Assembly: GCA_041675645.1 (NCBI GenBank)
Contig: JBAYTN010000001.1
Coordinates: 145,061 to 209,060, forward strand
Length of the DNA stretch: 64,000 nucleotides
From: Melioribacteraceae bacterium
GTDB lineage: Bacteria; Bacteroidota; Ignavibacteria; Ignavibacteriales; Melioribacteraceae
Reading direction: 5' to 3'
Of the stretch, positions 8,747 through 39,829 are shown piece by piece; positions within the stretch are counted from its first letter, which is position 1, and the number at the start of each line of letters is the position of its first letter. A model generated the notes under the pieces. The model searched no databases, had not been told where the DNA came from, and saw only the letters and a list, made by a program, of their open reading frames with translations. A program made the translations under genes and the position numbers.

Positions 8747-9226
8747 CTAAACAAATATCTGATCCATATGGTGCCTGAGATGAAAATAGTAATCGCGGAT
8801 AAAATAATCCAAGGTTGCCGGTTTGTTTTCCGGAATTCCCACCGAAGCAATATCATACAAATTATGTTTTTTTCTTTCTGCCAGAATCACTTCATCCTGA
8901 ATTTCTCCGGCAAGATGAGCGATTAGGAAATTAAACCCTTTCCACAATTCTACCAGTGCGAACCAGTTTACATATTGATAATTCTGAACCCGCACCCATT
9001 TGTCTTGGTCGTAGCCAAGAAATACAAGACTATCTTGAAACTGCGCGCGTACAAATCTTTGGTGATTGTTTGATGCCGAATCAATCAAATGGCCTAAGAT
9101 TTCTTTCTTAGACCATTTTCCATCTTGCTTCGATGAAGCTTCACCATCTCCCATCAATAACAGTTTAGCGTATGATTCAAGAAGATATTCTTTTTGTTCA
9201 TCAAGAAAACTTTTTAATGAATTCAT
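8747..9226 (-). CDS. DinB/YfiT-like family protein
   Basis: 159 aa with LGHLIDSASNNHQRF and HLAGE motifs of DinB_2-like four-helix-bundle metalloproteins. Its start overlaps the tricorn gene stop by 4 nt. Confidence 0.5.
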   Translation of the reverse strand: MNSLKSFLDEQKEYLLESYAKLLLMGDGEASSKQDGKWSKKEILGHLIDSASNNHQRFVRAQFQDSLVFLGYDQDKWVRVQNYQYVNWFALVELWKGFNFLIAHLAGEIQDEVILAERKKHNLYDIASVGIPENKPATLDYFIRDYYFHLRHHMDQIFV

Positions 9227-12200
9227 TTTATTCCTTTGATAGCTTCTTCTATAGCTTTATCCAATTGAGGATCTTTTTTCTCTAGTCTGTCTTTGAATGT
9301 TGTCTTAACGTAGATATCCGGCTTAACACCTTCAATCTCCAAATCCTTTCCATCAAGTGTATAACAGCCCCAAGATGGTAGTCTGTAGAAAGAACCATCA
9401 ACCAGACCTTTTCCGGAAGTAAAGATAATCCATCGGTAGCTTTCCGTACCAATAATTTTTCCAAGACCAAGCTGCTTAAATCCTTGCGATGTCATCTCTG
9501 CATCGCTTAGTGTTTGTTCGTTGATAAGAATAACTATTGGTTTGGCTGCCGGCGCAAAGTTAGGCTGAATTGTTAAAGCTCCGCCTCTGTATTTCCATTG
9601 CAAATAGGGGCGCTGACTTAGGAATTGAAGAACTGCATCGTGTACGTTACCGCCGGTGTTGAAACGAAGATCGTAAATCAATCCTTCTTTATAGTGAAAT
9701 TCATTCGTCATTTCAATCAAGAAATTCTCAAGTTCTCCGTCCCCCATGTTTTTCATGTGTACGTAAGCAATTTTGTTGTTCGATTTTTCATCAACATACT
9801 TTTGGTTTAGCTCAACCCACTCATCATACAAATTGGTTTTTAATTCGCCATAGCTTTGCGGATGAATCTTCACGTTCACATTCTCACTTCCCCGTTTTAA
9901 TCCAAGGGTAATTTCTTCCGGTTGAGAAGTTGTTAAGAAATATTTATTCCGGTTAGCTTCCTTGTTAACCATAGTTCCGTTAATAGAAACAAGCTCATCG
10001 CCCGGAAGAATTGCATTTCCTTTTTTCCATGCTGCAGAGCTCTTGAGAATTGATTTAACTTTGTACGGATTCTCATCATCAAATACGATTCCGGTTTCCA
10101 TAGACTCGGTTTTGTAGAATACTTTCTCTTCATCGCCGTTGGAGTTAAAGCCAAGATGAGAGGAGTTTAACTCACCGAGCATATCATTCAACAGCAAGCG
10201 CAAGTTGGCGCGAGATTTTACATAAGGCAAAAATGTTGAGTAATATTTTCCAAGTTTCTGCCAATCGGCTCCGTGGAATTTGTCATCATAAAAATTCTCT
10301 TCGAGGTTCGCCCAAGTTTCATAAAACATTTGATTGAATTCGGCGGAAAGATTTCTTGTGAACTTAGCTTCCGTTTCAACGGCGGTTAGTTTGCTTCCGG
10401 CTAAATCGATTTTATAAATTTTGCTGCCGGAGAGTAAATAATAATTGTCTTTCCCTTTGGTGATTTGATATCCGCTAACTTTAGCACCTTCAAACTTTTT
10501 TGTTTCCGGTTTATCAAAAGGTTTTAAAATTAACTGATAAAAATTATTTCCCTCTCCTTCATGATTAGAAGTAAATAGCAATCTTGTTTCATCCCCTTTT
10601 TGATAAATAAATGGCTGACCTTGCGATCCGCTAAGTTTAACAGTGCTTTCCCAGCGGTCTTTCAATCCAGCAAAATCAATTTCCACTTTTACTTTGGAGG
10701 AATCTTTCTTTTCGGGCAAAAACAACTTATCAAAACGGTCAGACTTAAATTCCCTATCAATTGGTTGAAGCGCTATTCTGTAAATATCATCATTTCGTGT
10801 TCCACGCGGATAACTTGGCGTTAATCTATCTGTTGAAAAATAAATGTATTTACCATCCGACGACCATGTTGGCGAACCTTCAGAAACTCCGGTCTTGGTA
10901 ATCTCGTAAGATTTTTCAGTTTTGAAATCGTAAGCAAAAATATCTGATTCAAAATTTCTCTGAGCTGTATAAGCTAAAAATCTATCGTCTGGAGAAAAGC
11001 TTGGATCGCCCGGATTGAGAGCCCAGAATTCATCCTTCACAATTGTTTTTGATTCCAGCGATTTTGAATCGAGAACCCGTAGCTCATTTCTTCCGCTGAA
11101 GTAAGCCACTTTACTTCTGTCGTTGCTAATTACAATTGATTGATTGTTCTGTTCATCTTTTGTCAATTGCTTCTTTTCACCTTTACCGTCAGCTTTAATT
11201 GTAAATAGATTTAACCAGCCGTTTACTGTTTGATTAAAAATGATTGTATCATTATTCAGCCAAAGAACTTCAATAATACGTTCAGCCGGATTTGTATTGA
11301 TCTGTTTTACAAACTTTCCTTCAACATCGGAAACAAACAACTCGCCTCTGGAAACAAACACAAATTTTTTTCCATCCGGCGAGGCGGCAAAATTAGTAAC
11401 CGCGCCTTTGGTATTGTACTCTTGTGAGTTAGTTAGTTTGTAATTACTTATTAACGAAACCGGAACTTTGTCAGACTTTCCAACTTTTACATCGTAAACA
11501 TAAAGCTGGTAATCTTTTTCGAAGACAACTTTTTCGCCATTAGCACTGACCTTCGGTTTCTTAATTGATGAATCAAATTTTGTGAGCTGTTTCTTCTTTC
11601 CATTTTCAAATGTAAAGAGGTTGTATTCGTCTGTTCCTTCGTCGCTGGCAAAGAATATCTTACTATTTTTATCAATTGACTGCCAAAAATCTTTGCCGTG
11701 ATAATCTGTAAGAAGTTTATATTCTTTTGTTGACGGGTTGTAATATTTTACATCGGGATTGAAATCACCTTTGTAGCGTTTTCTGTTCGCTTGGCTCCAG
11801 CTTTCCCAAGTATCGTTAAAGTAGAAGCCTTTGCTGATTGGATCTTCAATTAGGTTGTGTGGCCAGTTAAAAAAGTTATCGAATAATCGTACCGGCGTTT
11901 CTCCACCTAAACTAACTTTGAAAGCTGTTACAGAATTAAATCTATCTGAAGCGAAGTAAATAAATTTGGAATCCCACGACCACGATTCAACTAAATCATT
12001 TGAGCTGTGAAAAGTAAGTTGCTTGATCACTCCGCCTTGTACCGGAATTACATAAACATTGTTATTCCCATCTTGATTGCTAGTGAATGCAATCCATTTT
12101 CCATCCGGAGAATAAACCGGGCGGGTTTCATTCCCATCCATAGCTGTTAAGCGCAAAGCTTTTCCGCCATTAGAACCTACAGTCCATAAATCTCCCTCGT

Positions 12201-12318
12201 AAGAAAACACTATTGTATTAGCATCCGGAGAAAGTGCCGGATCGCTTAAAAAGTATTCTTGGGTTTGAGCATTAAGCTGTAAAAACAAAGCAAGAGAAAG
12301 CAGTATTACTTTTTTCAT
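9223..12318 (-). CDS. tricorn protease homologue (S41 family, beta-propeller + PDZ + C-terminal peptidase)
   Basis: 1031 aa with signal peptide. TolB-like WD40 repeats (YSPDGKWIAFTS, FSPDDRFLAYT) are followed by a PDZ-like region and a C-terminal S41 peptidase core. Size and architecture are typical of tricorn protease. Confidence 0.8.
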   Translation of the reverse strand: MKKVILLSLALFLQLNAQTQEYFLSDPALSPDANTIVFSYEGDLWTVGSNGGKALRLTAMDGNETRPVYSPDGKWIAFTSNQDGNNNVYVIPVQGGVIKQLTFHSSNDLVESWSWDSKFIYFASDRFNSVTAFKVSLGGETPVRLFDNFFNWPHNLIEDPISKGFYFNDTWESWSQANRKRYKGDFNPDVKYYNPSTKEYKLLTDYHGKDFWQSIDKNSKIFFASDEGTDEYNLFTFENGKKKQLTKFDSSIKKPKVSANGEKVVFEKDYQLYVYDVKVGKSDKVPVSLISNYKLTNSQEYNTKGAVTNFAASPDGKKFVFVSRGELFVSDVEGKFVKQINTNPAERIIEVLWLNNDTIIFNQTVNGWLNLFTIKADGKGEKKQLTKDEQNNQSIVISNDRSKVAYFSGRNELRVLDSKSLESKTIVKDEFWALNPGDPSFSPDDRFLAYTAQRNFESDIFAYDFKTEKSYEITKTGVSEGSPTWSSDGKYIYFSTDRLTPSYPRGTRNDDIYRIALQPIDREFKSDRFDKLFLPEKKDSSKVKVEIDFAGLKDRWESTVKLSGSQGQPFIYQKGDETRLLFTSNHEGEGNNFYQLILKPFDKPETKKFEGAKVSGYQITKGKDNYYLLSGSKIYKIDLAGSKLTAVETEAKFTRNLSAEFNQMFYETWANLEENFYDDKFHGADWQKLGKYYSTFLPYVKSRANLRLLLNDMLGELNSSHLGFNSNGDEEKVFYKTESMETGIVFDDENPYKVKSILKSSAAWKKGNAILPGDELVSINGTMVNKEANRNKYFLTTSQPEEITLGLKRGSENVNVKIHPQSYGELKTNLYDEWVELNQKYVDEKSNNKIAYVHMKNMGDGELENFLIEMTNEFHYKEGLIYDLRFNTGGNVHDAVLQFLSQRPYLQWKYRGGALTIQPNFAPAAKPIVILINEQTLSDAEMTSQGFKQLGLGKIIGTESYRWIIFTSGKGLVDGSFYRLPSWGCYTLDGKDLEIEGVKPDIYVKTTFKDRLEKKDPQLDKAIEEAIKGIK

Positions 12319-17923: not shown

Positions 17924-18391
17924 TTACTTTTCAAGCTTACCAAATATTTTCTTTAAGAAACCCATAAAGCGATGAAACGGATCGGCATCTTTGATGAACA
18001 TCATAGGGCAACCGCTGTGAATAACTGTTAACCCGTTCTCCTCACCTAACCGCGCCGCTTCTTTGTTATAGCTTCCGTTTCCCATTCCTTGATGAAACCA
18101 AACTCTTTTAACGCCATTTGCTATGCACTGCTTTACAACTTCATAAGCCGCAGTAGGATTTGTAGTTATTAAAATCGCGTCAATTTTTTCCGGTACCGAA
18201 GCCAAATCTTTGTAGCACTTATCTCCCTCAATCATCTCCGCATTCGGATTGATTGGATAAACAGTATAGCCGGCTTCTTTGAATTTCTTATAGATGGCAT
18301 TTCCAACTTTAGCTTTTGGAGTTCTTGAAACTCCGGCAAACGCAATTCTTTTCTGAGAAAGAAAATCGTCAACCTTTTCTTTGTACTTCAT
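17924..18391 (-). CDS. CoA-binding domain protein (YccU-like)
   Basis: 155 aa. The N-terminal part matches the CoA-binding Rossmann domain (KRIAFAGVSRTPKAKVGNAIYKKFKEAGYTVYPINP). It starts 9 nt downstream of the giant gene's stop. Confidence 0.65.
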   Translation of the reverse strand: MKYKEKVDDFLSQKRIAFAGVSRTPKAKVGNAIYKKFKEAGYTVYPINPNAEMIEGDKCYKDLASVPEKIDAILITTNPTAAYEVVKQCIANGVKRVWFHQGMGNGSYNKEAARLGEENGLTVIHSGCPMMFIKDADPFHRFMGFLKKIFGKLEK

Positions 18392-18399
18392 TTCAGCTC

Positions 18400-21300
18400 C
18401 TATAGTTTTCTTGCAACTACTATTGGCTTTTTAATTGTCTCAACGTTATTACTTCCTTCAGCAGCAATTTCTATTAATAGAATATAGATTCCCATACGAA
18501 GAGCTCTTCCGTCATCATCAAGCCCATCGAAAATAACAGTATTGTTTGCAGCTGACGGATGATTTTGTAGCAGTGTTCTTACCAATCGTCCTTGGCTATC
18601 AAAAACCTTTATCTGCACTTGTGAAAGTTTGTACGGTAAATTAAAACTGATAATTGAAAAATCTTCAAAGCCATCATTGTCCGGAGAGAACGGATTCGGA
18701 CTTATACTTACCCTCGCATCAGTTGCAAGGTTTTCCGTATAAACAGAATTCTGCTTGCCCGGTGTAGCGCCTTCGCTGGTTACACTCGTACTCCAATTAG
18801 CTCTGTCGTTTGAACTCAACGAAGGATTCAATCTTTCTAATGATTTGTTTTTCGTCTCAAGAAAATTTCTGTTATGCCATGCCGGAGAATAAACAACCGA
18901 ATCTAACGTTGTTCCGTATAAATCTTTCATTAACAATGGAGTTCCTTCGTTAGACAAACTGAGAGAAGACGAAACACGAGTAATATTTCGTTTTAACGTA
19001 GGGTATTTATTGTAGATAGATGAATCTGAAGCAAGTACCAGAAATTCTTTAGGAGGTATTATAAAAGTTGATGCCGATAACTTCACTTTATCTTTTGTGC
19101 CAACGCGAAGATCCAAGCCGCCAACTTGAATAGAATCGTTTGAGGTATTGTAGAACTCTACAAACTCAGCGTTTCCGCTTTCCGGTTCATAAAGTAATTC
19201 ATTAAGAACAAGAGAGCCGGTTTTATAAGCTTTAGGATTAGCAGAAGTATTTTTCACACCCGGCGAAGCACCTACATTTGAAATGGATACGATCCAGTTT
19301 GTGCTGTCGTTTGTAGCTTTTGTAAAAGATATTCTTTCGAGCGATGAACCGTTGCCGCCGCCCCAACTTGATTTGTAGAAGAAGCTATCAATTACAGCAC
19401 CGCGAAAATCGTAAATTATTATACCATCGGAAGTATTGCCAAGCGAACCAAACTTGGCTTGATAAAATTTCTTAGGCGGATTGTATGCATAAGCTTGTGT
19501 ATCCGGAGTAGCAATTGCGTATTCACCCGGCTGCAGAAATTCATCATTGATTGTTAATAGAGCTTTTGTGGGTGAAGGGAGAACATCGCCGACAGCCCAG
19601 TTCTTTAGATTAATTGCCTCATTTGAAACGTTTAGAAACTCAACCCATTCCGGTTCGTGAGTAAGAGGATCATACATTACCTCGGTAATTAGAACCGAGT
19701 TTTGTTTTGCGCCCGGTATAATGTCTCCGATGAAAGAATTGTTCAACGTGTCTTCATCGTTAGTAAAAGTAACTTTGCACAAAACCGTTTTCGCTTCGGA
19801 TAATTTTATTTTAGTTGATGAATAAACAACTACGGAATCATTGCTCTTTAGATTTACTCCATTCGTTTCGCCCAAATATGAATATAGATTATTATTCTTC
19901 ACGTAGTATTTTACAGTAAACTTATCCGCATCGAATGTTCCGTAATTAATCACTCTCATTCCAACGTTTATGTCTTCATTAAAAGCGGGGTAAAGCGGTT
20001 TTGGTACCAAAGCTTTAAGAGCAAGATCATATTTCTTTATCGCTATGCTATTTATTCTGCCCGGAGTACTCAACTCTAAATCTTTTGAAGAGCCCCAATT
20101 ATTTTTTTCAGAAGAAGCTATTGAGGTCATCCTTCTTTCAAGCGATTTTCCGTTTTCGCCGCCCCATTTACTATCGAAGCGAACCGAATCAATCGTCACA
20201 TCGCGAGAATCTTTAATGACAACACCATCAGCATCATTATTCAAATTCGCAAAACTCGTAATAATCAGCTTGGAAGGAATCGCATTATGATAGTTTTTAA
20301 TTGTAGAGTCTTTTGCAATAACCAAAAATGTGTTTTTCGGAAAGACCGAATCTTTAGCTTTAACAATTTGTTTTTGAGGAGTTGTTAGAATATCTGTAAT
20401 TGACCAATCTTCCAAATCGACATCGTTTGCAGATGCATTATAAATCTCCAACCATTCCGGCTCGCCGTTAATTGGATTATACATTACTTCATTTATATAA
20501 ACTGTTCCGGCTGTGTATCCTGGACGAACAGAAGCTGAGAATGCATTATTCGTAAAATCTTCATCTGAACCAAAATCGGCAACAACTTCAAAAGTATTTT
20601 TTGCAAGAATGCTTTCGATAGCATAAGAAAAATCATAAGAAAGCGAAGCGTCTTTCGAAATAATCATTGTGTTTGTTTCTTCAATTTTCTGCTTCGTTCC
20701 ATCCTTGTTAACTTTATTCAAAACAAATTTGAATGAAGCGTCTGTCTTACCAAAGTTTGTTGCTGCAACAGAAATTTTTACACGCTGACCAACAATTGGA
20801 ACGGCTGGAGTAAACAAAAGCTTTGTAACCGATACGTCAAATTTCTTTCGAGAGATTGAATTAATAAATCCCGGTGTTGCGCCAAGCAGATGAAGCGAAG
20901 TTTTCCAATTAGTTGAATCTGTTGACAATTTCACCCAATCTAATCGCTCTAAAGATTTTCCGCCCGTTCCTCCCCAGCCACTTTTATATTCAAGAGAATC
21001 GATTGTACGATCGAGTGAATCAAGTATAACAACTCTGTCCTTAGAATTATTAAGCGTTGGGAATGAGGCTATCACAGATTTTGTGATGTTTGTGAAGCGT
21101 GTATAGACTGCACTGTCTTTTGCTACAACAAAATATTCTTCCGGTTTCAAAACGACATCTTGAGCAATAACTTTACTTTTGGTAGAACCGTTTGCAATTT
21201 GGTATCCCTTTAGATTAATCTGCTTTAGACTGTTATTATAGATTTCAATCCACTCCGGCTCCCCGGTTAGAGGCGCATACATAATTTCGTTAATTACCAA

Positions 21301-24300
21301 ATCATTTCTTTCTTCATTTACAACAACGGCATTTATTGTTAGCGGAAACATATTGTTATCTAAATATTGATCTGCCGGATATTCTACTGTTGCTAAGTAC
21401 TGGTTTAATCCAATTACATACGACCCATCTTCAACATCATACTTGCTCGCTGTGTTAATCGCCAAGCTGGTTTCATTCTTTAAATAAACCAGCTCGTTTG
21501 TTTCGCCAATACCATTTTTATTTGCATCGCGGTAGAGTTTAACCGAGAAAGCCGACGCAGCATTTTTACCAATATTCTTTATTTCTATACTCATTTTAAT
21601 TTTTCTTCCAACAACCGCATATTTTTGTACCGCTGAAAGAGAACTTAAATAAATATCGTGATCTTTTGGTGAAACCGAGTTTATTCTTCCCGGCGAACTA
21701 AATTCACTGTCTATTGAAGAACCCCAATTAGTCTTTAGATTAGTGGTACTTTCAAACAAAATTCTCTCTAGCGATTTTCCATTTTCTCCGCCCCATGTTT
21801 TATCGAACAGCAATGAATCAATCATTACATCGCGGGAATCTTTAATTACAATGCCCTCTGTATCATTATTCAGATTTGCAAAAGGACTGACAATTACTTT
21901 CCCATTAATTGTCTTATGAAAATCAAGCAGAGTGCTATCCTTTACTATAACTAAATAGGTTTTGCTTGGAAAAGAGAAATCCTTTGCTTGAATTTTTGTC
22001 TTTAGTGGAGAAGTTAGTACATCAGTAATCGACCATTCTTCTAAATCTACATCATATGCAGATGCATTATAAAGTTCTATCCACTCCGGTTCTCCATTCA
22101 TTGGAGCGTACATTACTTCATTCAGCACAACTGTTCCCGATGGATATCCCGGACGAACAAAGTTAGTTACTGTGTTATTTGCTAAATCCTCATCCGCACT
22201 ATAATCAGCAATCGCTTCAAATGTCTGTTTGGATGTAATGTTATCAACAGCGTGAGTAAACTCATAAGAAACTGAAGTACCGACTGCAATAGTTAGATTG
22301 TTCGACTCTTCAACTTTTAGCTTGCTTCCGTCCTTGTCAATCTTATTCAAAACGAACTTAAATGATGCACCGTTTTTCCCAATATTAGTTGCGCTTGCAG
22401 AAATTTTTACTCTCTGACCTACAACCGGCGCTGAAGGAGTGAAAACTATATTTGATATAATAACATCTCTGTCTTTTGGTGAAACAGAATTATTTTTTCC
22501 GGGTGTGCTAAGTTCAATATCTTTTGAAAAGTCCCAATTTGATTTATCATTTGTGGCGCTTTCATAAACCTTACGTTCTAAAGACTTGCCGGCGTCGGCT
22601 CCCCATGTTTTATCATATAACAATGAATCGATTATAACATCGCGAGAATCTTTTATAACAATTCCGTCTGAGTCATTATTTAGAGGGGGTAATGGATTTA
22701 CAATAAATTTTCCGGCAATCGATTCGTGAAAGCTTTTTATTGTACTATCTTTTGCAATCACCAAATAAGTTTTGCTAGCAAACAAATTATTTGGGGCGGC
22801 AATTTTGACTTTATACGGGGATGGCAACACATCTGTTATCGACCAATCATCCAAATCAATATTATAGTCGGAGCTGTTATATAACTCAATCCACTCCGGT
22901 TCACCATTCATTGGGGCGTACATCACTTCATTCAGCACGACTGTTCCGGATGGATATCCCGGACGAACAAAGTGCGTCACTGTGTTATTGGTTAAATCTT
23001 CATCCGCACTGTAATCAACAATCGCTTCGAATGTCTGTTTGGATGTAATGTTATCAACTGCATAAACAAATTCATAAGAAACTGATGCGCCAACCGCGCT
23101 AGTTAGGATGTTAGACTCTTCAACCTTTTGCTTGCTTCCATCCTTATTTACTCTGTTCAAAACGAACTTAAATGAGGCACCGTTTTTCCCAATGTTAGTT
23201 GCGCTTGCAGAAATTTTTACTTTCTGACCTACAACCGGAGTTGAAGGAGTGAAAACAATATTTGATATAGCAACATCTCTATCCTTTGGTGAAATAGAAT
23301 TATTTTTTCCGGGTGTGCTAAGTTCAATATCTTTTGAAAAGTCCCAATTTGATTTATCGTTGGTGGCGCTTTCATAAACCTTACGTTCTAAAGATTTGCC
23401 GGGGTCGGTTCCCCATGTTTTATCATACAACAAAGAATCTATTGTTACATCGCGGGAATCTTTAATCACAATACCGTCTGCTTCATTATCTAGTGGCGGA
23501 AAAGAACTTACTATAAACTTACCGGAGATTGATTTGTGAAAATCTTTTATTGTGCTATCTTTTGCGATGACCAAATATGTTTTACTCGGAAAAGGAATGT
23601 CCTTTGCCAAGATTTTTCTTTTTTGCGGAGTGGTTAACACGTCAGTAATTGACCAGTCTTCCAAATCAACATCGAAAGATGACGCATTGTAGAGCTCAAT
23701 CCACTCCGGTTCACCGTTAAGAGGATTGTACATCACTTCGTTAAGTTTTATAGTACCGGCTAAATATCCGGGACGAACAGAAGCAGTTGTTGAATTATTC
23801 GCTTGATCTTCATCAAGTGCTAAATCAGCGATTACTTCGAAAGTTTGCTTTGAAGCAAGAACTTCCACAGCAAATGTAAAGTTGTAAGTAAGCGAATTTC
23901 CTTTTATCAAAGTAATGGTATTCGATTCTTCTACTTTCTGTTTGCTTCCATCACTATCAACTCTGTTCAGAACAAACTTAAATGAAACATCGTTTTTACC
24001 AATATTTGAAGCACTTGCAGCTATGGTTACCCTTTGCCCAACCAGCGGTGAGGAAGGCGTATATATAATTTTGGAAACAGCTACATCAAAATTTTTCTGA
24101 GAACTTGAATTCACTATTCCGGGTGTTCCTCCCAAATTGTTAAGCGAAGTTATCCAATTCGATGAATCAACAGAGGTTCTAATCCAATCAACACGTTCCA
24201 AAGACTTTCCAACACCTCCGCCCCATGAGTTTTTGTATTCGAGAGAATCTATTGTGCGGTTAAGCGAATCCAGAATTACAACTTTATCTTTAGTGTTAAG

Positions 24301-26316
24301 CAATGTTGGAAACGTTGCCACCGAAAATTTTGATGTTTTCGGATAAGTTTGATACATAGAGCTATCGCGCGTGATTACAAAATACTCTTCCGGATTTATT
24401 ACTATGGTTTTATCAACCACTTTATTTTTTGAAGATGAATTAGCTAATTGATAACCTCTCAGATTAATCTGCTTAGAACTCCTATTGTAAACTTCCACCC
24501 ATTCCGGCTCTGAAGAGTTCGGGCTATACATAATTTCATTTACAACTAAATCGCCGGGCAATTCATTTATCTGTACTGCATTGAATTTTAATACTGAAAT
24601 ATTGTTTTCAAGATATTCATCGTTTAATAAATCAACACGAACAATAAATTGATTTGAACCGGCAACGAAGCTTCCCACAGTGAAGTTTAAATTTACTATT
24701 GCCAGATTAGCAAAAACAGTTCCTTTTATTTCGTCTATCTTCTCATCATCATCGATAGTATTGTTAAGATTAATATCGCGGAACAGTTTAGCAGAATAAG
24801 CTGTTTCTGTACTCTTACCTAGATTTTCTATCGTTGCTGTTAATTGAATTGTCTTTCCAATTTCGGCGTACTTGGAGCTTGTTCCAAAACTTTTAACACT
24901 CAGATCATGACTCTTCTCCGAAACCGAATTTATTTTTGAAGGCGTAGCTTTGTACTTGCTTAAAGAGGTATTCCAGTTAGCAGCATCTATCGAAGAAGCA
25001 TTGAATGAAATTCTCTCCAAAGACTTCCCGCCGCTGTTTCCTCCCCATGTAGGCGCGTATTTTAAAGAATCAACCGTAGAGTTCACATTACTTTTAAGAA
25101 TTACATCATCACCCGTATTGCTAAAAGAAGGAAGCCCTTTTACAATTAAATTGAGCGAATGACTGTAATAGTTTGTAATAGTTGCGTCGCTGCTTATAAC
25201 AACATATTCGCTAGGCTGAAGTAGAAAATCGTTTGAGGTAATTACAGCAGTAGTGGAATTATCGGAAATTTTCCAGTTTTTTAGATTTACCGTATGATCT
25301 GTTCTATTAAAGAGTTCAATCCACTCCGGTTCATCGTTAGAGGGCGCGTACATAATTTCATTTATTACAACATCCGTATAAGAAGCCGGTTTTTCAGATA
25401 TAGTGGTTAAAACATAAGCTCTGTTATCGGAAAGCTTTTCGTCCGGAGTATAATTAACTTTTGCAATAATCAAATTCTGCCCTATCTGCTCAGCATAAAA
25501 TTTAGCATCTACAAAAATTGAATCGTTCGATGAGAGGTCTATATAACTCTGACTAAATATTCTTTCACTTATCTGCTCTACCGAATCGGCATTTTGATCA
25601 CGAAAGATTTCCACAGAATAGGCGGAAGCATCCAGGACGCCGTTATTCTTTACAATAAATTGCACATAAACCGAATCCCGCTCTACGGGATTTGCCGGTG
25701 TTAAAGAACTTAATCTGACTGTAAGGTTATGCAAGTAGCTTATAGGTGTTACGGAATTTATTTTTCCGGGAGAGCCGTTAGCAGTTGTTCCGTTACGCCA
25801 ATTTGCGGAACTGTTATCCTTACCGAGTAAGTATTTTTCATCGGAGATTCCGGAATTGTTATCTGCCGAATATGTATAAGTATCTATCACCTCGCTCGCA
25901 GCATTAAGCAAAGAAACGTCGCGGCTAGTGGTATTTGCCATACCGGAAGAACCAAAAGACGCATCTGTAATTTTTAATACTATTGCATCGGCGGGGATTA
26001 AATTTTTATATGCGCCGTTATTGTAATCATAATCACTTTCTATTATAACCGCATATTTGCCCGGTTGAAGATCCATTCCACCAATAAAAGCAACTAGATT
26101 ATCTGACGAGGAGGTGTAATACTTAATCTTGAACCCGGTAAGATTAACAGTTTCGGTAGTTGAGGTGTTATAAATTTCTATAAACTCGCCGTTGCTTTCG
26201 GATGGATTAAACATGATTTCAGAAAGCGTGAGAACCGATCCGGTTTGTCCGAATGCTTGTGGAGTGGCTAAAAACAGCAAGGTAATTGCTGCAAAGACAA
26301 ATATTATTTTTTTCAT
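18400..26316 (-). CDS. giant (2638 aa) secreted surface protein: 10 lamin-tail domains (LTD) interleaved with CARDB-like Ig domains, with a T9SS type-A C-terminal sorting domain
   Basis: Signal peptide MKKIIFVFAAITLLFLATPQAFGQ. Ten copies of the LTD signature N-E-[IV]-M-Y-x-P...EPEWIE[LI]YN. Repeated DV.IS.I.FTPS.PVVGQ.V.ISASATNIGKN modules (CARDB-like). The C-terminal ~85 aa (ISPNPFSPDNDGFEDFSIISFNL...IKVFDSQGRLVRTL...GIYILLIE) matches the T9SS type-A CTD. Confidence 0.8.
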   Translation of the reverse strand: MKKIIFVFAAITLLFLATPQAFGQTGSVLTLSEIMFNPSESNGEFIEIYNTSTTETVNLTGFKIKYYTSSSDNLVAFIGGMDLQPGKYAVIIESDYDYNNGAYKNLIPADAIVLKITDASFGSSGMANTTSRDVSLLNAASEVIDTYTYSADNNSGISDEKYLLGKDNSSANWRNGTTANGSPGKINSVTPISYLHNLTVRLSSLTPANPVERDSVYVQFIVKNNGVLDASAYSVEIFRDQNADSVEQISERIFSQSYIDLSSNDSIFVDAKFYAEQIGQNLIIAKVNYTPDEKLSDNRAYVLTTISEKPASYTDVVINEIMYAPSNDEPEWIELFNRTDHTVNLKNWKISDNSTTAVITSNDFLLQPSEYVVISSDATITNYYSHSLNLIVKGLPSFSNTGDDVILKSNVNSTVDSLKYAPTWGGNSGGKSLERISFNASSIDAANWNTSLSKYKATPSKINSVSEKSHDLSVKSFGTSSKYAEIGKTIQLTATIENLGKSTETAYSAKLFRDINLNNTIDDDEKIDEIKGTVFANLAIVNLNFTVGSFVAGSNQFIVRVDLLNDEYLENNISVLKFNAVQINELPGDLVVNEIMYSPNSSEPEWVEVYNRSSKQINLRGYQLANSSSKNKVVDKTIVINPEEYFVITRDSSMYQTYPKTSKFSVATFPTLLNTKDKVVILDSLNRTIDSLEYKNSWGGGVGKSLERVDWIRTSVDSSNWITSLNNLGGTPGIVNSSSQKNFDVAVSKIIYTPSSPLVGQRVTIAASASNIGKNDVSFKFVLNRVDSDGSKQKVEESNTITLIKGNSLTYNFTFAVEVLASKQTFEVIADLALDEDQANNSTTASVRPGYLAGTIKLNEVMYNPLNGEPEWIELYNASSFDVDLEDWSITDVLTTPQKRKILAKDIPFPSKTYLVIAKDSTIKDFHKSISGKFIVSSFPPLDNEADGIVIKDSRDVTIDSLLYDKTWGTDPGKSLERKVYESATNDKSNWDFSKDIELSTPGKNNSISPKDRDVAISNIVFTPSTPVVGQKVKISASATNIGKNGASFKFVLNRVNKDGSKQKVEESNILTSAVGASVSYEFVYAVDNITSKQTFEAIVDYSADEDLTNNTVTHFVRPGYPSGTVVLNEVMYAPMNGEPEWIELYNSSDYNIDLDDWSITDVLPSPYKVKIAAPNNLFASKTYLVIAKDSTIKSFHESIAGKFIVNPLPPLNNDSDGIVIKDSRDVIIDSLLYDKTWGADAGKSLERKVYESATNDKSNWDFSKDIELSTPGKNNSVSPKDRDVIISNIVFTPSAPVVGQRVKISASATNIGKNGASFKFVLNKIDKDGSKLKVEESNNLTIAVGTSVSYEFTHAVDNITSKQTFEAIADYSADEDLANNTVTNFVRPGYPSGTVVLNEVMYAPMNGEPEWIELYNASAYDVDLEEWSITDVLTSPLKTKIQAKDFSFPSKTYLVIVKDSTLLDFHKTINGKVIVSPFANLNNDTEGIVIKDSRDVMIDSLLFDKTWGGENGKSLERILFESTTNLKTNWGSSIDSEFSSPGRINSVSPKDHDIYLSSLSAVQKYAVVGRKIKMSIEIKNIGKNAASAFSVKLYRDANKNGIGETNELVYLKNETSLAINTASKYDVEDGSYVIGLNQYLATVEYPADQYLDNNMFPLTINAVVVNEERNDLVINEIMYAPLTGEPEWIEIYNNSLKQINLKGYQIANGSTKSKVIAQDVVLKPEEYFVVAKDSAVYTRFTNITKSVIASFPTLNNSKDRVVILDSLDRTIDSLEYKSGWGGTGGKSLERLDWVKLSTDSTNWKTSLHLLGATPGFINSISRKKFDVSVTKLLFTPAVPIVGQRVKISVAATNFGKTDASFKFVLNKVNKDGTKQKIEETNTMIISKDASLSYDFSYAIESILAKNTFEVVADFGSDEDFTNNAFSASVRPGYTAGTVYINEVMYNPINGEPEWLEIYNASANDVDLEDWSITDILTTPQKQIVKAKDSVFPKNTFLVIAKDSTIKNYHNAIPSKLIITSFANLNNDADGVVIKDSRDVTIDSVRFDSKWGGENGKSLERRMTSIASSEKNNWGSSKDLELSTPGRINSIAIKKYDLALKALVPKPLYPAFNEDINVGMRVINYGTFDADKFTVKYYVKNNNLYSYLGETNGVNLKSNDSVVVYSSTKIKLSEAKTVLCKVTFTNDEDTLNNSFIGDIIPGAKQNSVLITEVMYDPLTHEPEWVEFLNVSNEAINLKNWAVGDVLPSPTKALLTINDEFLQPGEYAIATPDTQAYAYNPPKKFYQAKFGSLGNTSDGIIIYDFRGAVIDSFFYKSSWGGGNGSSLERISFTKATNDSTNWIVSISNVGASPGVKNTSANPKAYKTGSLVLNELLYEPESGNAEFVEFYNTSNDSIQVGGLDLRVGTKDKVKLSASTFIIPPKEFLVLASDSSIYNKYPTLKRNITRVSSSLSLSNEGTPLLMKDLYGTTLDSVVYSPAWHNRNFLETKNKSLERLNPSLSSNDRANWSTSVTSEGATPGKQNSVYTENLATDARVSISPNPFSPDNDGFEDFSIISFNLPYKLSQVQIKVFDSQGRLVRTLLQNHPSAANNTVIFDGLDDDGRALRMGIYILLIEIAAEGSNNVETIKKPIVVARKL
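20450..24400. repeat. intragenic tandem repeats of ~800 bp (LTD + CARDB unit)
   Basis: The segment starting near 22241 and the one starting near 23041 (for example ggatgtaatgttatcaac...tttttccgggtgtgctaagttcaatatcttttgaaaagtcccaatttgatttatc) are about 90% identical at DNA level over roughly 750 bp. Flanking copies near 20640 and 23840 are about 70% identical. The period is about 800 bp. Confidence 0.8.
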
Positions 26317-26498: not shown

Positions 26499-28553
26499 AT
26501 GAAACGCGTAAAACTATTTGTGGCTTTAATGATTACCGCTCTATTATTCAGTTGCAACATTAACGAGCCTAACATGCCCCAATGGGATGTATCGTTAAAC
26601 CTACCAATCGCTAAGAAAAACTATTCATTAATCGATTTGTTAGAAAAAAGCTCCGATTTGAATTACTACAAAGATGGCAGCAATCTCCTTTACTTCTCGC
26701 AAGAAAAAAGTATAGACCAGATTGAGCTGAAAGACAAACTGAAAATCGATGCCGTAACCGAATCGGCTTCAGAAACGATCGGGTCAATATCAATTGCGAG
26801 CGATTCCGTTACCGCAGATATTGGCTTTGGATGGATAAGCACCGGTATTACTCCAGGAATGCAAGCCGTCGTTCCTCCTATTAACGATGTGCCGGTATCA
26901 ATCAACACGGATATTCTGGATCAGTTTTTAACTGTAAAATTGGAAGCCGGGACAATTGACCTATCAATCACAAACCAGTTCCCATCTCCGGTATCTTTAA
27001 CAATTAGAAACATTGTTCTAAAGAACGCTTCCGGCGGTGAAGTTGTTGCACAATACAGCGGAAGTACAACAATTCCCGCTAAAGAATCCAGAACTATAAA
27101 AGCAATTCCAATTACAAAAGGAATTTTTATAAAGAACCAACTTACGCTCGATTGTTTGGTTTCAACCAATGGAAGCAATGGAACGCCGGTTACAATTCCA
27201 CAAAATTCTTTTTCTGTAAAAGCTAAGTTTGTTAATTTGAGCGTTGTTGAAGCACAAGCAAAAATTCCGGCGCAAGATCCGGTTGTTATTGATAATACAA
27301 TTACTATTGATGAAGGTGAAGCACAACCGACTAAATTTTCCAATATCAAAATTGAAACCGGCACGTTGACGGTTAAAGTAACCAACAATCTTGATGTTGA
27401 TGCGACACTGAATTTGACGATCAGCAATTTGAAAAATCCGAGCGGACAAATATTTACCGAAATTCGTTCGATTGCAAGAAAACAAACTGTAACTCTCTTC
27501 AACAACTTGTCCTTGCTGGATTATTCAATTGTAAGCACTAGCGGTTCTCCTACAAATCAACTTTCATACAAAATTTCTTTACAAACCAAAGCCACCAGTG
27601 ATTTTAGAACAATAAAGAGTACAGATGGAATTTCCGGTTCCGTTGAAATAAGCAATCTTAAGCTAAAAGAGTTCACAGGTCAGCTTCAACCTCAACTAGT
27701 TGAAGCAGAAAGAAGTGCTATTTCTCTCGATTTGCAAGATTTGAAGGATAAGCTGCAATTCCAGCAAATTAATCTGCGCAATCCTCTCGTTCAACTCCGT
27801 TTAAAAACCAACGCGCAGTTCGAATTCAGAATTGATGGCAGAATTGAAGGTAGAAACAGCCTTGGGCAAAAGGCGATTCTTGGATTAAATAGTAAAACAC
27901 TAAATACTACTTTAATAACTCCGGCCGATTCTATCTTAACAATAAATTCCGACAGCTTAAGTCTCTTCTTTAAAAAGTTTTCCCGTTTCCCGGATTCATT
28001 AATTGTGTACGCCGGCGGCACGCTTAATCCTAACTACAAAACAGTTAGCTTGAAAAGCACAGACAAGATTACCGGAAGAAGCATCTTCGAGCTTCCGCTG
28101 GATTTTGGAATATCAAACGCACAGATAACCGACTCCGTAGCCGTGGATTTATCGAACGATGAGCGAGATCAAATTAAAGATGTAAATTCAATAGAAGCCG
28201 GATTAGTTTTAACAAACGGTTTGCCCGCATCTATTTCTTTTACGGGAAAGATGTATGACCAAAACAATAATTTCTTAACCTACTTCCCGCCAAAGTATTC
28301 CGATCAAGATACTGTACTAACTTTTAATGGAGCCGCAACTGATGCATCCGGCAATGTATCTGTTAAAAATAAACAGACAAAAACGGTGAAAGCATTAAAG
28401 GCAGAAGTTGATAAAATTGCAAAAGCGAAATACATGAGAGTTAGGCTAACTTTGAATACAAGCGGATCGGGCAATTCACCGGTGCGCTTTAAAACTACAG
28501 ACGATTTACTAATTCACGCTTTCGGTTCAACCAATTACCGCGTAAAGCCATAA
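26499..28553 (+). CDS. large lipoprotein of unknown function
   Basis: 684 aa with lipoprotein signal MKRVKLFVALMITALLFSC. I recognised no known domain. Transcribed divergently from the T9SS cargo gene and followed 7 nt later by the outer-membrane barrel gene. Confidence 0.6.
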   Translation: MKRVKLFVALMITALLFSCNINEPNMPQWDVSLNLPIAKKNYSLIDLLEKSSDLNYYKDGSNLLYFSQEKSIDQIELKDKLKIDAVTESASETIGSISIASDSVTADIGFGWISTGITPGMQAVVPPINDVPVSINTDILDQFLTVKLEAGTIDLSITNQFPSPVSLTIRNIVLKNASGGEVVAQYSGSTTIPAKESRTIKAIPITKGIFIKNQLTLDCLVSTNGSNGTPVTIPQNSFSVKAKFVNLSVVEAQAKIPAQDPVVIDNTITIDEGEAQPTKFSNIKIETGTLTVKVTNNLDVDATLNLTISNLKNPSGQIFTEIRSIARKQTVTLFNNLSLLDYSIVSTSGSPTNQLSYKISLQTKATSDFRTIKSTDGISGSVEISNLKLKEFTGQLQPQLVEAERSAISLDLQDLKDKLQFQQINLRNPLVQLRLKTNAQFEFRIDGRIEGRNSLGQKAILGLNSKTLNTTLITPADSILTINSDSLSLFFKKFSRFPDSLIVYAGGTLNPNYKTVSLKSTDKITGRSIFELPLDFGISNAQITDSVAVDLSNDERDQIKDVNSIEAGLVLTNGLPASISFTGKMYDQNNNFLTYFPPKYSDQDTVLTFNGAATDASGNVSVKNKQTKTVKALKAEVDKIAKAKYMRVRLTLNTSGSGNSPVRFKTTDDLLIHAFGSTNYRVKP

Positions 28554-28563
28554 GGAGAGAGTG

Positions 28564-30000
28564 ATGAAAAAAATAAAAGTAATTTCGACTGTTATTGTTC
28601 TCCTAATTTCTACTTTGACCTTTGCCCAAGGAAATGGTTCCATTGGTGTAACCGATGCGCGTTCAATGGGAATGGCAAAAACGTTTACAACATCATCATT
28701 CGGAATTTATGCAGTTGGAAAAAATCCGGCGAACCTTTTTCAAGATTCATCTAGGAAGGTCGAGCTGATACTGCCTCTGCCATTGCCAAATATTTCCGGC
28801 GCGGTTGGTTCAAATTTTATTTCACTCGATGAATACAACTATTACTTCGGAACAAAAGTTACCAATTCCGACGGCTCCACCTCCGGCAGATTACTGACAG
28901 AACAAGACAAAACTAAGCTCAAAGATTTATTTGCTGACGGCGGAACAGTTTTCTCCGATATTCATGTTCAGCTTGTAAGTATTTCAGTTCAGCCATCCAA
29001 AGCTTTCGGTGCAATCGCTTTTTCTATTACAGATCGAATTAGTGGATTAATGACTTTTCCGAAAAGCTTGATTGATCTTGGCGTTGAAGGAAATTTACCA
29101 AACAAAGTTTACAATTTTAACGACACGCAATTCAAAGCTTCTTGGCTGCGCAAATATTCCTTTTCGTATGCCCGCGATTTCAAAATCATTCCAAAACTGT
29201 TCAAGAGTTTCAAAGTTGGTGCTTCAATAAACTTTGTAAGCGGATTTTTCTACGCCGGGCTTGATCACATTAACACGGAATTAAAAACCGGCGAAGCAAA
29301 TACAATAACCGGTAAAGGAGATTTTTTAGCTTACTCGGCTTTCTCGCCGGACTTTAAAGTAAAATACAATTTTGTGAAGGATGAAAAGAAAGAAGACTTT
29401 TCCGGAACACCATTTCCAACTCCCGCCGGCAGCGGCGTTGGTTTTGATTTTGGAATCAGCACACTTTTGAGCGATAATTTCTCTGTTGGATTTTCCATTA
29501 CAGATATCGGCAAAATAAAGTGGGATAAAGATGTAGCACAGTATTCATCCAACGCCGCAATTTATTTGGATGATCTAAGTGATAAAGCTCAGCGAGATAC
29601 TCTTGTAAACCGGCTTACCGGAAAAGAGAGCGGTAAGTTTATCAACTCAATCACAACTCAAATGGCGACGGCATTACACATCGGCGCATCGCTGAAATTA
29701 GAAAGCGTACCGGGCACAATGTTGCTTGCTTTGGATTATCACCAAGGAATGAATGACGAACCGGGAAACAGCAAGAAGCCACGCATTGCGTTAGGTGTTG
29801 ATTGGTACAATCTCGGAGTTTTTGCGCTTCGTACCGGTTGGGCTTTTGGCGGGTTTGATAAATTCAACTGGGGATTGGGTTTAGGAATTGATTTTGGAGT
29901 GATAGCTCTAAACTTTGGTTCGCCAGATTTTCAAAATGTGGTTTCTTCCAGCAAAGCAAAAAGAGTTACATTCGCTTTTGATTCTGTCTGGAGATTTTAA
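28564..30000 (+). CDS. putative outer-membrane beta-barrel protein (PorV/FadL-like?)
   Basis: ATG at 28564, preceded by aggaga 5 nt upstream. Signal peptide MKKIKVISTVIVLLISTLTFAQG. The mature N-terminus GSIGVTDARSMGMAKTFTTSS resembles the conserved N-terminus of the PorV/PorQ/FadL-like barrel family. A C-terminal aromatic residue (…SVWRF) is typical of outer-membrane proteins. Confidence 0.4.
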   Translation: MKKIKVISTVIVLLISTLTFAQGNGSIGVTDARSMGMAKTFTTSSFGIYAVGKNPANLFQDSSRKVELILPLPLPNISGAVGSNFISLDEYNYYFGTKVTNSDGSTSGRLLTEQDKTKLKDLFADGGTVFSDIHVQLVSISVQPSKAFGAIAFSITDRISGLMTFPKSLIDLGVEGNLPNKVYNFNDTQFKASWLRKYSFSYARDFKIIPKLFKSFKVGASINFVSGFFYAGLDHINTELKTGEANTITGKGDFLAYSAFSPDFKVKYNFVKDEKKEDFSGTPFPTPAGSGVGFDFGISTLLSDNFSVGFSITDIGKIKWDKDVAQYSSNAAIYLDDLSDKAQRDTLVNRLTGKESGKFINSITTQMATALHIGASLKLESVPGTMLLALDYHQGMNDEPGNSKKPRIALGVDWYNLGVFALRTGWAFGGFDKFNWGLGLGIDFGVIALNFGSPDFQNVVSSSKAKRVTFAFDSVWRF

Positions 30001-37444: not shown

Positions 37445-39829
37445 ATGAAGCGATTCTTTTCTTCTCTGATTCTTCTTCTTACAATAATTACAACACAAAG
37501 CTTCTCGCAGGCTGATCCAGTTATTCAAAAAATAATTGAGATTGGTAAAACAGATAACCAAACAATGCGCCATTTGGACATTCTTTGTAACCGCATAGGC
37601 GGCAGACCAATCGGTTCCGATGCTTACACAAACGCCGCAAATTGGGTTCTTGGAGAATTTAAGAAATGGGGCATTAAAGCAGAGTTAGATGAATCGGGAG
37701 AACTTCCGGTTGGTTTTAACCGCGGAGCTTGGTTTGGCAAGATGATCAAGCCAAAAGAAATGCATTTGGAATTTGGTACCCCGGCATTTACAGCCGGAAC
37801 AAAAGGTGTTCAGCGCGGTCACGTAATTATTATGCCCAACACCTATGCAAAGTTTGATTCACTAAAAAATAAAATAAAAGGCGCTTGGATTTTAGTAGAC
37901 GGAATTAATGAAGGCTGGCCACGGGATCGTGACTCTGTTTCTTCTCTAACTACTAAGTTGATTGCTGCCGGCGCTCTTGGAACAATTCAGTTATCTAAAC
38001 TTCCTATTCGTCTTCTTGATGCGCGGTATGTTAAATCATGGAATAATTTGCCAATGCTTCCGGATATTAAATTGCTCGACACACAATTCAACGAAATAAA
38101 ATCATCCGTTGAAAAAGGTGAAGAAGTAATTCTCGAATTTGATATCCGGAATTTTTTCAAACAAGGTCCGATCAAATATCATAATGTAATTGGAATTATT
38201 CCCGGCACAGAATTTCCGAACGAGTATGTTGTTCTTGGTGCACATTTGGATTCATACGATTTTGCGACCGGTGCTGTTGATAACGGTTCCGGTGTAACGC
38301 CAATGATGGAAGCAATGAGAATGCTTGTTCTCTCCGGCGCAAAACCGAAACGTTCAATCATGATTCAAATTTATGCCGGTGAAGAAAGAGGTTTACTAGG
38401 TTCAAAATCTTGGGTAGCAAAAAACCAAAAACTGCTTCCTAAAATTTCTGTAATGCTGAATAAGGATTTTGGGACAAATCCTATAGTTGGAATTGGAGTT
38501 CCTAAAGTTATGATGGAACAAACGAAAACTGTTGTTGAGCCAATACTAAACGCCGGATTAAAATATCCATTCAAACTAAATGAAACCGGTCCATTTAGAA
38601 AAGCCGGACGCGGCGGAACCGATAGTCATTCATTTTTGATGGAAGGAGTTCCAACTCCTCGCTTAAATTCCGAAGGTCCGCATCAATATGGAAGAACATG
38701 GCATACGCTTTACGATACTTACAACGAAGTGATTCCCGATGCGCAAGAAGATGCGGCTGTAAAAATAGCTTTGCTTGCTTATGGCTTTGCTAATCTTGAT
38801 GAACTCCTTCCGCGAGAAGGCGCATTTGTTCCCGATGGAATTTATGCTGATATAAGCACCGCATCAAAAGGAAGAATTACGCTTGCGCTTGATTATGAAC
38901 ATGCACCTATGACTGTTGCCAACTTTATTGGTTTGGCTGAAGGAACAATAAAGAATGAAGCAATCGTTGAAGGAAAACCATATTACTCTAATGTTGTTTG
39001 GCATCGGGTTGTAGATGGGCACGTAATACAAGCCGGAATGCCGAATACCGGAAAAGAAACCGAAGGCCCCGGATATGAATTTCCAAATGAAATTTATAAC
39101 GGCTTCTCACATAATAAAGCCGGTATGCTTGGTATGGCGAACTCTGGTCCTAATACCAACGGAAGTCAATTCTACATTACACTTGCCGACCGTTCCTATT
39201 TGGATGGCAACTACACTTTATTCGGTTGGGTAACAGAAGGAATGGATGTAGTAAATAAGATTGCTCAAGGAGATACAATTAAAAGCATTACAATTACGCG
39301 CATCGGTGAAAAAGCAAATGCATTTAAAGTAACAAACGATTCATTTACTAAAATGGTTGACGAAGCTAAAGCCAAAGTTAAACTTGCTGATGAACAAAGA
39401 GTTAAAACCGAAGCTCAACTGGTTGCGAATAATTACTCGAATGCCGTAACAACCGCGAGCGGTTTGAAATATATAATAAAAAAAGAAGGCTCCGGAGAAA
39501 AACCCGCTGCTGGATCAATAGTAAAAGCGAAATACACCGGTAAGCTATTAATCAACGGAACCGAGTTTGTAAGTACTAGTGTAGAAGGAAAGGCTAACAC
39601 AATTGAGACGCCGGAAATTTTTGATTACGAAGTTGGTAAAACGAAAATTAACCACGGTGTTGATGAAGCATTAGCAGATATGAAACCGGGCGAAGTTCGT
39701 TTAGTAGTTGTGCCCTCCAATCTGGCATTTGGAACAAGCGGATTTTACGGCAAATCAATTTCGGGCAAAAAACGTTTTGTGATTTCTCCAAACACTAGTT
39801 TGGTTTATGAAATTGAAGTATTGCAATAA
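37445..39829 (+). CDS. secreted tri-domain protein: M28 family peptidase (PA domain) + cyclophilin-type PPIase + FKBP-type PPIase
   Basis: Signal peptide MKRFFSSLILLLTIITTQSFSQA. M28 zinc-ligand regions (HLDSYDFATGAVDNGSG, AGEERGLLGS). Cyclophilin core (VVWHRVVDGHVIQAGMP...GPNTNGSQFYITLAD...GWVTEGMDVV). C-terminal FKBP domain (GLKYIIKKEGSGEKPAAGSIVKAKYTGKLLINGTEF...RLVVVPSNLAFG). Confidence 0.75.
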   Translation: MKRFFSSLILLLTIITTQSFSQADPVIQKIIEIGKTDNQTMRHLDILCNRIGGRPIGSDAYTNAANWVLGEFKKWGIKAELDESGELPVGFNRGAWFGKMIKPKEMHLEFGTPAFTAGTKGVQRGHVIIMPNTYAKFDSLKNKIKGAWILVDGINEGWPRDRDSVSSLTTKLIAAGALGTIQLSKLPIRLLDARYVKSWNNLPMLPDIKLLDTQFNEIKSSVEKGEEVILEFDIRNFFKQGPIKYHNVIGIIPGTEFPNEYVVLGAHLDSYDFATGAVDNGSGVTPMMEAMRMLVLSGAKPKRSIMIQIYAGEERGLLGSKSWVAKNQKLLPKISVMLNKDFGTNPIVGIGVPKVMMEQTKTVVEPILNAGLKYPFKLNETGPFRKAGRGGTDSHSFLMEGVPTPRLNSEGPHQYGRTWHTLYDTYNEVIPDAQEDAAVKIALLAYGFANLDELLPREGAFVPDGIYADISTASKGRITLALDYEHAPMTVANFIGLAEGTIKNEAIVEGKPYYSNVVWHRVVDGHVIQAGMPNTGKETEGPGYEFPNEIYNGFSHNKAGMLGMANSGPNTNGSQFYITLADRSYLDGNYTLFGWVTEGMDVVNKIAQGDTIKSITITRIGEKANAFKVTNDSFTKMVDEAKAKVKLADEQRVKTEAQLVANNYSNAVTTASGLKYIIKKEGSGEKPAAGSIVKAKYTGKLLINGTEFVSTSVEGKANTIETPEIFDYEVGKTKINHGVDEALADMKPGEVRLVVVPSNLAFGTSGFYGKSISGKKRFVISPNTSLVYEIEVLQ

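Follow-up and report, generated by a model that had tools for sequence, protein, structure and literature searches.

The lamin tail domain (LTD, Pfam PF00932) occurs in tandem in bacterial proteins, as noted in 2004 by Mans et al. (as cited in PMC6085458), and NCBI lists entries named 'lamin tail domain-containing protein' in Ignavibacteria. With these the protein described here, encoded in a 64-kb window of the genome of a Melioribacteraceae bacterium (the window being the whole stretch of DNA analysed, from contig JBAYTN010000001.1) and hereafter called the LTD-repeat protein, shares both the domain and its tandem arrangement. The giant repetitive adhesins SprB and RemA of Flavobacterium johnsoniae, exported through the secretion system of type IX (T9SS), are built from other repeat domains, whereas the LTD-repeat protein combines LTD and CARDB domains. 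Its gene has neither a gliding-motility context nor an adjoining PorP/SprF-like gene among the neighbours scanned, and its host belongs to a different phylum, in which T9SS function is putative. Shewanella ExeM, the DNase I-family enzymes of halophiles and Hvo_1477 of Hfx. volcanii are likewise secreted or envelope-associated proteins with an LTD, but these nucleases carry one LTD together with catalytic and nucleic-acid-binding domains, whereas the LTD-repeat protein has ten LTDs and no catalytic domain. The tail of human lamin B1 (PDB 7dtg) is only 16% identical, and the LTDs considered here are extracellular rather than nuclear, and longer (about 155 residues). BT_1938 of Bacteroides thetaiotaomicron (DUF4876, PDB 4q1z) is a lipoprotein of 389 residues and not a tandem-repeat protein. 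Finally, the CARDB domains of PF1109 (PDB 3idu) and MA_4588 (PDB 2l0d) come from archaeal and bacterial surface proteins; here, one of eight modules reaches the CARDB cut-off.

The LTD-repeat protein is the product of a single open reading frame (ORF) with an ATG start, 2638 codons and a stop codon at 18400-18402, exactly the 8-kb gene announced in a preliminary description of this window. Its product is identical to GenBank MFA7418178.1, 'MAG: lamin tail domain-containing protein [Melioribacteraceae bacterium]' (MAG, metagenome-assembled genome), encoded on a 282.5-kb contig, and is thus already correctly named there. The mature protein has about 288 kDa, a pI (isoelectric point) of 5.0, a net charge of -65 and one Cys; the G+C content across the gene, 36-39%, is the same as in the remainder of the window. 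What is new is the plan (LTD-CARDB)n-LTD-LTD-CTD, CTD standing for a C-terminal sorting domain, its spread from 3 to 12 LTD copies, and its independent expansions; before, only the domain name had been described. We consider it probable, with moderate confidence, that the LTD-repeat protein is a putative T9SS-exported, extended surface fibre or adhesin with the LTDs as binding modules. Its parts are listed below from the N-terminus to the C-terminus; positions are those of the window, (-) is the minus strand, aa stands for amino acid residues, IG1 to IG8 are the Ig modules, and L1 to L6 and i1 to i4 are the LTDs and Ig modules of the six-LTD family members.

18400..26316 (-), whole LTD gene: 2638 codons and stop; product identical to MFA7418178.1.
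26248..26316 (-), predicted Sec signal peptide, aa 1-23: MKKIIFVFAAITLLFLATPQAFG, followed by Q; assigned by inspection of the sequence and from the family pattern.
25753..26247 (-), LTD1, aa 24-188: most divergent copy, with about 10 inserted residues; ortholog of L1 throughout the family.
25387..25752 (-), IG1, aa 189-310: CARDB-like, 21.5 bits against 22.7; N.G and D..NN motifs.
24925..25386 (-), LTD2, aa 311-464: limits from the Pfam LTD match and the motifs.
24565..24924 (-), IG2, aa 465-584: CARDB-like, 21.9 bits; subtype of module 6, 36% identical to IG6.
24106..24564 (-), LTD3, aa 585-737: 61% identical to LTD7.
23767..24105 (-), IG3, aa 738-850: 'FTPS' subtype; CARDB 16.4 bits, DUF11 17.7 bits.
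23296..23766 (-), LTD4, aa 851-1007: belongs to the recently duplicated L4-type group (LTD4, 5, 6 and 8).
22957..23295 (-), IG4, aa 1008-1120: 'FTPS' subtype.
22486..22956 (-), LTD5, aa 1121-1277: identical to LTD4 at 78% of residues and 79% of DNA positions.
22147..22485 (-), IG5, aa 1278-1390: 'FTPS' subtype; 86% identical to IG4.
21676..22146 (-), LTD6, aa 1391-1547: limits from the motifs; L4-type group.
21316..21675 (-), IG6, aa 1548-1667: CARDB 27.7 bits against 22.7.
20857..21315 (-), LTD7, aa 1668-1820: ortholog of L3 in the 6-LTD members; modelled.
20518..20856 (-), IG7, aa 1821-1933: 'FTPA' subtype; modelled.
20047..20517 (-), LTD8, aa 1934-2090: limits from the motifs; L4-type group.
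19711..20046 (-), IG8, aa 2091-2202: ortholog of i4 throughout the family.
19246..19710 (-), LTD9, aa 2203-2357: orthologous to L5; joined to LTD10 by six residues (19228-19245).
18745..19227 (-), LTD10, aa 2364-2524: orthologous to L6.
18403..18744 (-), probable C-terminal sorting domain, aa 2525-2638: seven-stranded beta-sandwich of the T9SS CTD type.

Ten LTDs had been claimed from the outset, and the Pfam model PF00932 indeed matched ten separate stretches of the protein, with a score of 493.1 bits where 34.3 is the cut-off (E 8.8e-151), which is far beyond chance. The LTD limits given above were placed with a start motif, (N/S/T)E(I/V/L)(M/L)(Y/F).P, and an end motif, (S/T)P(G/S)..N(S/T). 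All ten copies align with twelve invariant positions, and a strict regular expression of the LTD signature matches seven to eight of them, degenerate versions being present in LTD1, LTD9 and LTD10. When a profile of the ten LTDs was compared with PDB sequences, the only match was at chance level (4fyp, E 0.28) and lamins were not found; phmmer with the whole protein gave no match in the same sequences. The link with lamins therefore rests on the comparison of folds, in which the LTDs have the Ig-like beta-sandwich of the lamin tail. Two segments were modelled with AlphaFold2 (AF2), on the basis of aligned orthologous segments taken from 24-25 diverse members of the family. Both models are all-beta: LTD7-IG7, with a mean pLDDT (predicted local distance difference test) of 90.5, and IG8-LTD9-LTD10-tail, with a mean pLDDT of 87.3 and a pTM (predicted template modelling score) of 0.71.

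LTD1 to LTD9 are separated by eight Ig modules, each 112-122 residues long. The alternation of LTDs with CARDB-like Ig domains, as initially described, holds for these eight modules but breaks down at the end of the series, where LTD9 joins LTD10 directly through a linker of six residues with no Ig module. A sequence motif, DV.IS.I.FTPS.PVVGQ.V.ISASATNIGKN, had been said to follow most LTDs; this was overstated, as it was found in four of the eight modules (IG3, IG4, IG5 and IG7). The remaining four (IG1, IG2, IG6 and IG8) are of different CARDB-like subtypes, and the motifs N.G and D(E/Q)..NN are common to all eight. On the whole protein, the CARDB model PF07705 scored 50.7 bits in one stretch only. 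Scanned alone against the cut-off of 22.7 bits, only IG6 (27.7) was above it, IG2 (21.9) and IG1 (21.5) were just under, and IG8 (18.3), IG3 (16.4) and IG5 (16.3) followed; for IG4 and IG7, no CARDB match was obtained at E<=1. DUF11 scored 15-18 bits for IG3, IG4, IG5 and IG7, about equal to CARDB. The top PDB sequence match of a profile of the eight modules was the CARDB-type nuclear magnetic resonance structure 2l0d (E 0.043), and the modules have the CARDB beta-sandwich fold.

In a gene made of repeats, the number of units could be wrong through their collapse or expansion in the assembly, a worry raised in the preliminary description. Internal units 4 and 5 do resemble each other. However, even the most similar units differ appreciably in DNA (79% identity for LTD4 and LTD5, 86% for IG4 and IG5, most pairs being at 50-65%), and no exact repeat of 80 nt or more exists within the gene. 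A homologue from an independent sample, P0001, has the same length of 2638 aa, the identical order of units and 87% identity over its full length. Relatives form a graded series with 8 LTDs (P0003), 9 (P0004) and 10 (the LTD-repeat protein), and further 10-LTD members are known (L073, L079, P0014, P0015, P0035 and P0042). Because the units have diverged in DNA and a homologue of the same length exists elsewhere, collapse or expansion is very unlikely; the worry is refuted, and we give an incorrect repeat number next to no credence.

A search for homologues yielded 511 proteins at E<=1e-10; those with a name belong to Stygiobacter, Melioribacter, Ignavibacterium, Rosettibacter and unclassified Ignavibacteria or 'Bacteroidota' MAGs. 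Rosettibacter firmus has a form with 8 LTDs. The best 120 were annotated with hidden Markov models of the LTD-repeat protein's own units. Every one of the 118 complete proteins among them follows the plan (LTD-Ig)n-LTD-LTD-tail, with 6 LTDs (56 proteins), 7 (16), 8 (25), 9 (13), 10 (6), 11 (1) or 12 (1). A scan of genomes, one per GTDB species, gave at least 536 matching stretches, of which the best 80 loci were analysed. These came from 80 different assemblies, all of them Ignavibacteria and including the isolate Stygiobacter electus 09-Me (6 LTDs), and contained 3 to 10 LTDs, 6 and 5 being commonest. Two of the loci (L019 and L067) encode full-length 3-LTD members of 743-751 aa with a signal peptide, a minimal architecture; the 3- and 4-LTD forms are considered full-length because they start with proper signal peptides. 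The family seems to have one copy per genome throughout Ignavibacteria. Over homologues and loci together, the LTD number ranges from 3 to 12, with a mode of 6, and the plan is signal peptide-(LTD-CARDB)n-LTD-LTD-CTD throughout. Ten LTDs are therefore in the upper part of the common range and not an oddity: the architecture first called unusual is the standard plan of a family spread across Ignavibacteria, and the protein itself was already in GenBank. In the literature, nothing specific was found on LTD proteins in Ignavibacteria.

Every unit of the homologues was classified against the six-LTD protein of I. album. The end units are orthologous everywhere, L1-i1-L2 on the N-terminal side and i3-L4-i4-L5-L6-tail on the C-terminal side, and the extra units are internal. 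From the unit classification, the lineage of the LTD-repeat protein is one in which the block i2-L3-i3-L4 was duplicated, as in 8-LTD relatives such as P0003; later, an i3-L4 unit was duplicated once (P0004, 9 LTDs), then again (the LTD-repeat protein and P0001, 10 LTDs). Other proteins with 9 to 12 LTDs multiplied i1/i2-L2/L3 units (P0014, P0015, P0021, P0026, P0035 and P0046). Since different units were multiplied in different lineages, lengthening was independent and occurred several times. Mean pairwise identities, taken over the 56 proteins with six LTDs, are 54-60% for the individual LTDs and 39-44% for the individual Ig modules; the tail, at 64.6%, is the best-conserved part of the family. 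The LTDs are thus more constrained than the Ig spacers.

Both ends of the protein bear on its export. By inspection, the N-terminus consists of MKK, a hydrophobic core, and then AFG followed by Q. The junction between MKKIIFVFAAITLLFLATPQAFG and Q looks like a substrate of signal-peptidase I, with Gln as the predicted new N-terminus, and a Q directly after the predicted cleavage site is nearly always found in family members. An exposed Gln corresponds to the 'Q-rule' of Bacteroidetes, to which Ignavibacterium album conforms at 77% (PMC5837995). At the other end, 114 residues remain after LTD10 and constitute the tail. The modelled tail is a seven-stranded sandwich that superposes at 1.8 Å root-mean-square deviation on three experimentally verified type-A T9SS CTDs. 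Scanned alone, it scored 24.8 against a cut-off of 23 with the type-A model TIGR04183 of NCBIfam (18.4 in the whole-protein scan), and stayed under the cut-off of the type-B model TIGR04131 (18.1 versus 35). Its top NCBIfam match was to the last ~95 positions of the PorU model, with 33.5 bits, and it was above the cut-off of Pfam FlgD_ig (PF13860, 32.9 versus 27), a label sometimes given to type-B CTDs according to a review (PMC11611037). In 18 diverse family tails, the PorU C-terminus, FlgD_ig and CHU_C were each matched 18 times, TIGR04183 17 times and TIGR04131 16 times (weak), whereas PF18962 was matched at E<0.01 in 10. For type-B cargo, a PorP/SprF-like partner would be expected beside the gene, and none adjoins the LTD gene. 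The fold comparison is clearer than the sequence models, and we take the tail to be a T9SS-type sorting domain, probably of type A. T9SS genes may be present in Ignavibacteriota (PMC11285876; PMC5837995), and carbohydrate-active enzymes of Melioribacter roseus carry Por-type sorting domains (PMC3534657). In the I. album locus that was fetched, two neighbours of the family gene have a Por_Secre_tail.

Several observations weigh against a type-A, T9SS-exported fibre. The type-A CTD initially described is borne out by the superposition and marginally by TIGR04183, but not by the Pfam type-A model PF18962, for which the tail scored 19.4, under the cut-off of 27. Alone, the tail passed the type-B-related model CHU_C (PF13585) with 30.8 against 27. 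Among solved structures, the tail is closest in sequence to FlgD (3osv), which a profile of the family tails matched at E 1.5e-4; this relation is at the level of the fold family only, as the LTD-repeat protein lacks the N-terminal domain of FlgD, and its scanned neighbours showed no flagellar context. The anchoring mode follows the CTD subtype, on which the sequence models split, and anchoring as type-A cargo is therefore tentative. No T9SS machinery gene was present among the 20 ORFs scanned in the window. The neighbourhood of the LTD gene is kept in the closest relatives only and is wholly different in I. album and Rosettibacter firmus, and therefore gives no functional clue. Lastly, the role of bacterial LTDs is described as unknown (PMC6085458), and no paper on the family was found that reports its expression, localisation or binding.

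If the LTD-repeat protein is a T9SS-exported fibre or adhesin, its path may be pictured as follows. The protein would be exported by Sec, signal-peptidase I cutting after AFG and exposing Gln. The type IX translocon would then recognise the C-terminal beta-sandwich, identified as a CTD at the level of family and fold, and carry the protein across the outer membrane. There, the CTD would be removed and the protein attached to the surface as type-A cargo, or released. The product would be a string of 18 beta-sandwich domains; at about 4 nm for each Ig-like domain, full extension could bring it to roughly 70-80 nm. The LTDs would serve as the conserved working modules of this string, and the CARDB domains as more freely evolving spacers. 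With LTD1 and the C-terminal i4-L5-L6-CTD block fixed, internal duplication of LTD-CARDB units may tune the reach of the fibre or the number of its binding modules. Its most likely role would be that of a surface fibre or adhesin, or of a component of a surface coat.

Not all type-A T9SS cargo stays anchored; some is released, which would agree with a protein of the extracellular matrix or biofilm whose CTD serves for export only, and which is shed and self-associates. Metal ions are bound in 3idu, a CARDB structure, and the conserved acidic/Asn motifs seen here could, by inference, mediate a cation-dependent association. The strictly conserved, CTD-proximal L5-L6 block fits a fixed attachment end somewhat better, and we regard release into a matrix as improbable.

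The charge of the LTDs bears on another possibility, mentioned in the preliminary description besides a long fibre or adhesin, namely the binding of extracellular DNA: at the cell surface, tandem LTDs would capture such DNA as a nutrient, for uptake or for building a biofilm. Extracellular nucleases, among them ExeM of Shewanella and the DNases of halophiles, carry a single fused LTD, and DNA binding is ascribed to lamin tails (PMC6085458; PMC4486849; PMC8289736); moreover, removal of the LTD slowed the degradation of DNA by ExeM in vitro (PMC6085458). However, in this one experimental test of a bacterial LTD, the domain was dispensable for degradation of extracellular DNA in vivo, and its role was left open (PMC6085458). 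In the LTD-repeat protein, nine of the ten LTDs have an acidic pI (4.3-5.5) and a net charge of -1 to -9, LTD10 having a pI of 6.8, and the whole protein is acidic as well (pI and net charge as given above). This acidity argues against direct DNA binding. In addition, neither the protein nor the scanned neighbours contain a nuclease, oligonucleotide-binding (OB) fold or helix-hairpin-helix domain. DNA capture is accordingly weakened to the point of being a distinctly unlikely role, whereas a long surface fibre or adhesin stands as reasonable.

Two further readings concern what the LTDs would bind. In the first, the LTD and/or CARDB domains would act like carbohydrate-binding modules, in a fibre or scaffold that holds the cell on insoluble polymers or organises T9SS-secreted glycoside hydrolases; we hold this to be unlikely. 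In the second, which goes further than the fibre or adhesin that we favour, the family would be a clade-defining, single-copy surface organelle of Ignavibacteria, with a fibre length set by the number of LTD-CARDB units (3 to 12) and re-tuned time and again through duplications inside the protein in separate lineages, and with a specific, conserved extracellular binding role for the LTD. This is a speculative proposal of rather low probability. The targets that it would imply for the LTD, for example the cell's own outer-membrane glycolipid, a partner cell, or a mineral or polymer surface, are equally tentative.

The surroundings of the LTD gene were also inspected. Downstream, only 8 nt past its stop codon, lies a gene for a CoA-binding-domain protein of 155 aa (17924-18391), followed by PAP2, B12-binding and alpha-amylase genes. 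The 8-nt gap suggests that the LTD and CoA-binding genes are co-transcribed, and their pairing is kept in 13 of the 85 loci fetched (L001-L085, comprising 5 contig look-ups and the 80 genome loci). Upstream and divergent are a gene for a 684-aa lipoprotein, 26499-28553 (+), and a DUF5723 gene, 28561-30000 (+), separated by 8 nt. The 684-aa ORF has a lipoprotein-type signal (ending in ALLFSC) and no Pfam or NCBIfam match. The second protein matches PF18990 with E 2e-33, and its N-terminal part faintly matches the PorV/PorQ family, with 20.6 bits against a cut-off of 90. Five close relatives have a match of the lipoprotein (L001, L002, L006, L008 and L009) and three of the DUF5723 protein (L001, L002 and L008); the two may form a pair of an outer-membrane lipoprotein and a barrel. 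A function at the level of an operon was considered and rejected, the neighbour genes being confined to close relatives and missing from I. album and Rosettibacter. Around the LTD gene, a scan for sigma-70 promoters found 24 sites, versus 27 expected from shuffled sequence, and a scan for terminators found 6, versus 6.2 in shuffled sequence. No tRNA gene was found in the window.

Other genes of the window are reported here for their own sake. At 9223-12318 (-) lies a gene for a tricorn-like protease of 1031 aa (PD40 beta-propeller repeats, Tricorn_C1, PDZ and S41 peptidase), which is conserved nearby in the closest relatives. An ORF at 37445-39829 (+) encodes an apparent fusion of 794 aa between an M28-type aminopeptidase, a cyclophilin-type peptidyl-prolyl isomerase and an FKBP-type one, with weak BamJ and GldI-like matches; the same fusion recurs in L001 and L002, two Stygiobacter-like loci. 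Four overlapping or abutting ORFs at 43806-49607 (+), one of which (46249-48342) has the N-terminal double-transmembrane domain TIGR02226, look like a Bat/aerotolerance-type operon. Two nearby genes of the histidine ammonia-lyase family, 49594-51159 (+) and 51963-53486 (+), pass the histidine ammonia-lyase subfamily model with 671 and 532 bits, and both also resemble tyrosine ammonia-lyases and aminomutases.

As a genomic finding, a large repetitive surface protein is otherwise ordinary. Bacterial LTDs, however, are widespread and share their fold with the nuclear lamins, and the present family spans a class with cultured members (Ignavibacterium album, Melioribacter roseus, Stygiobacter electus and Rosettibacter firmus), which suits it well to the question of what bacterial LTDs bind. 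The LTD-CARDB family would also be direct test material for T9SS-type sorting outside Bacteroidota. If the family were indeed a surface organelle of Ignavibacteria, this would give the bacterial lamin tail domain its first defined function, and the naturally varying LTD numbers would provide a series relating fibre length to function.

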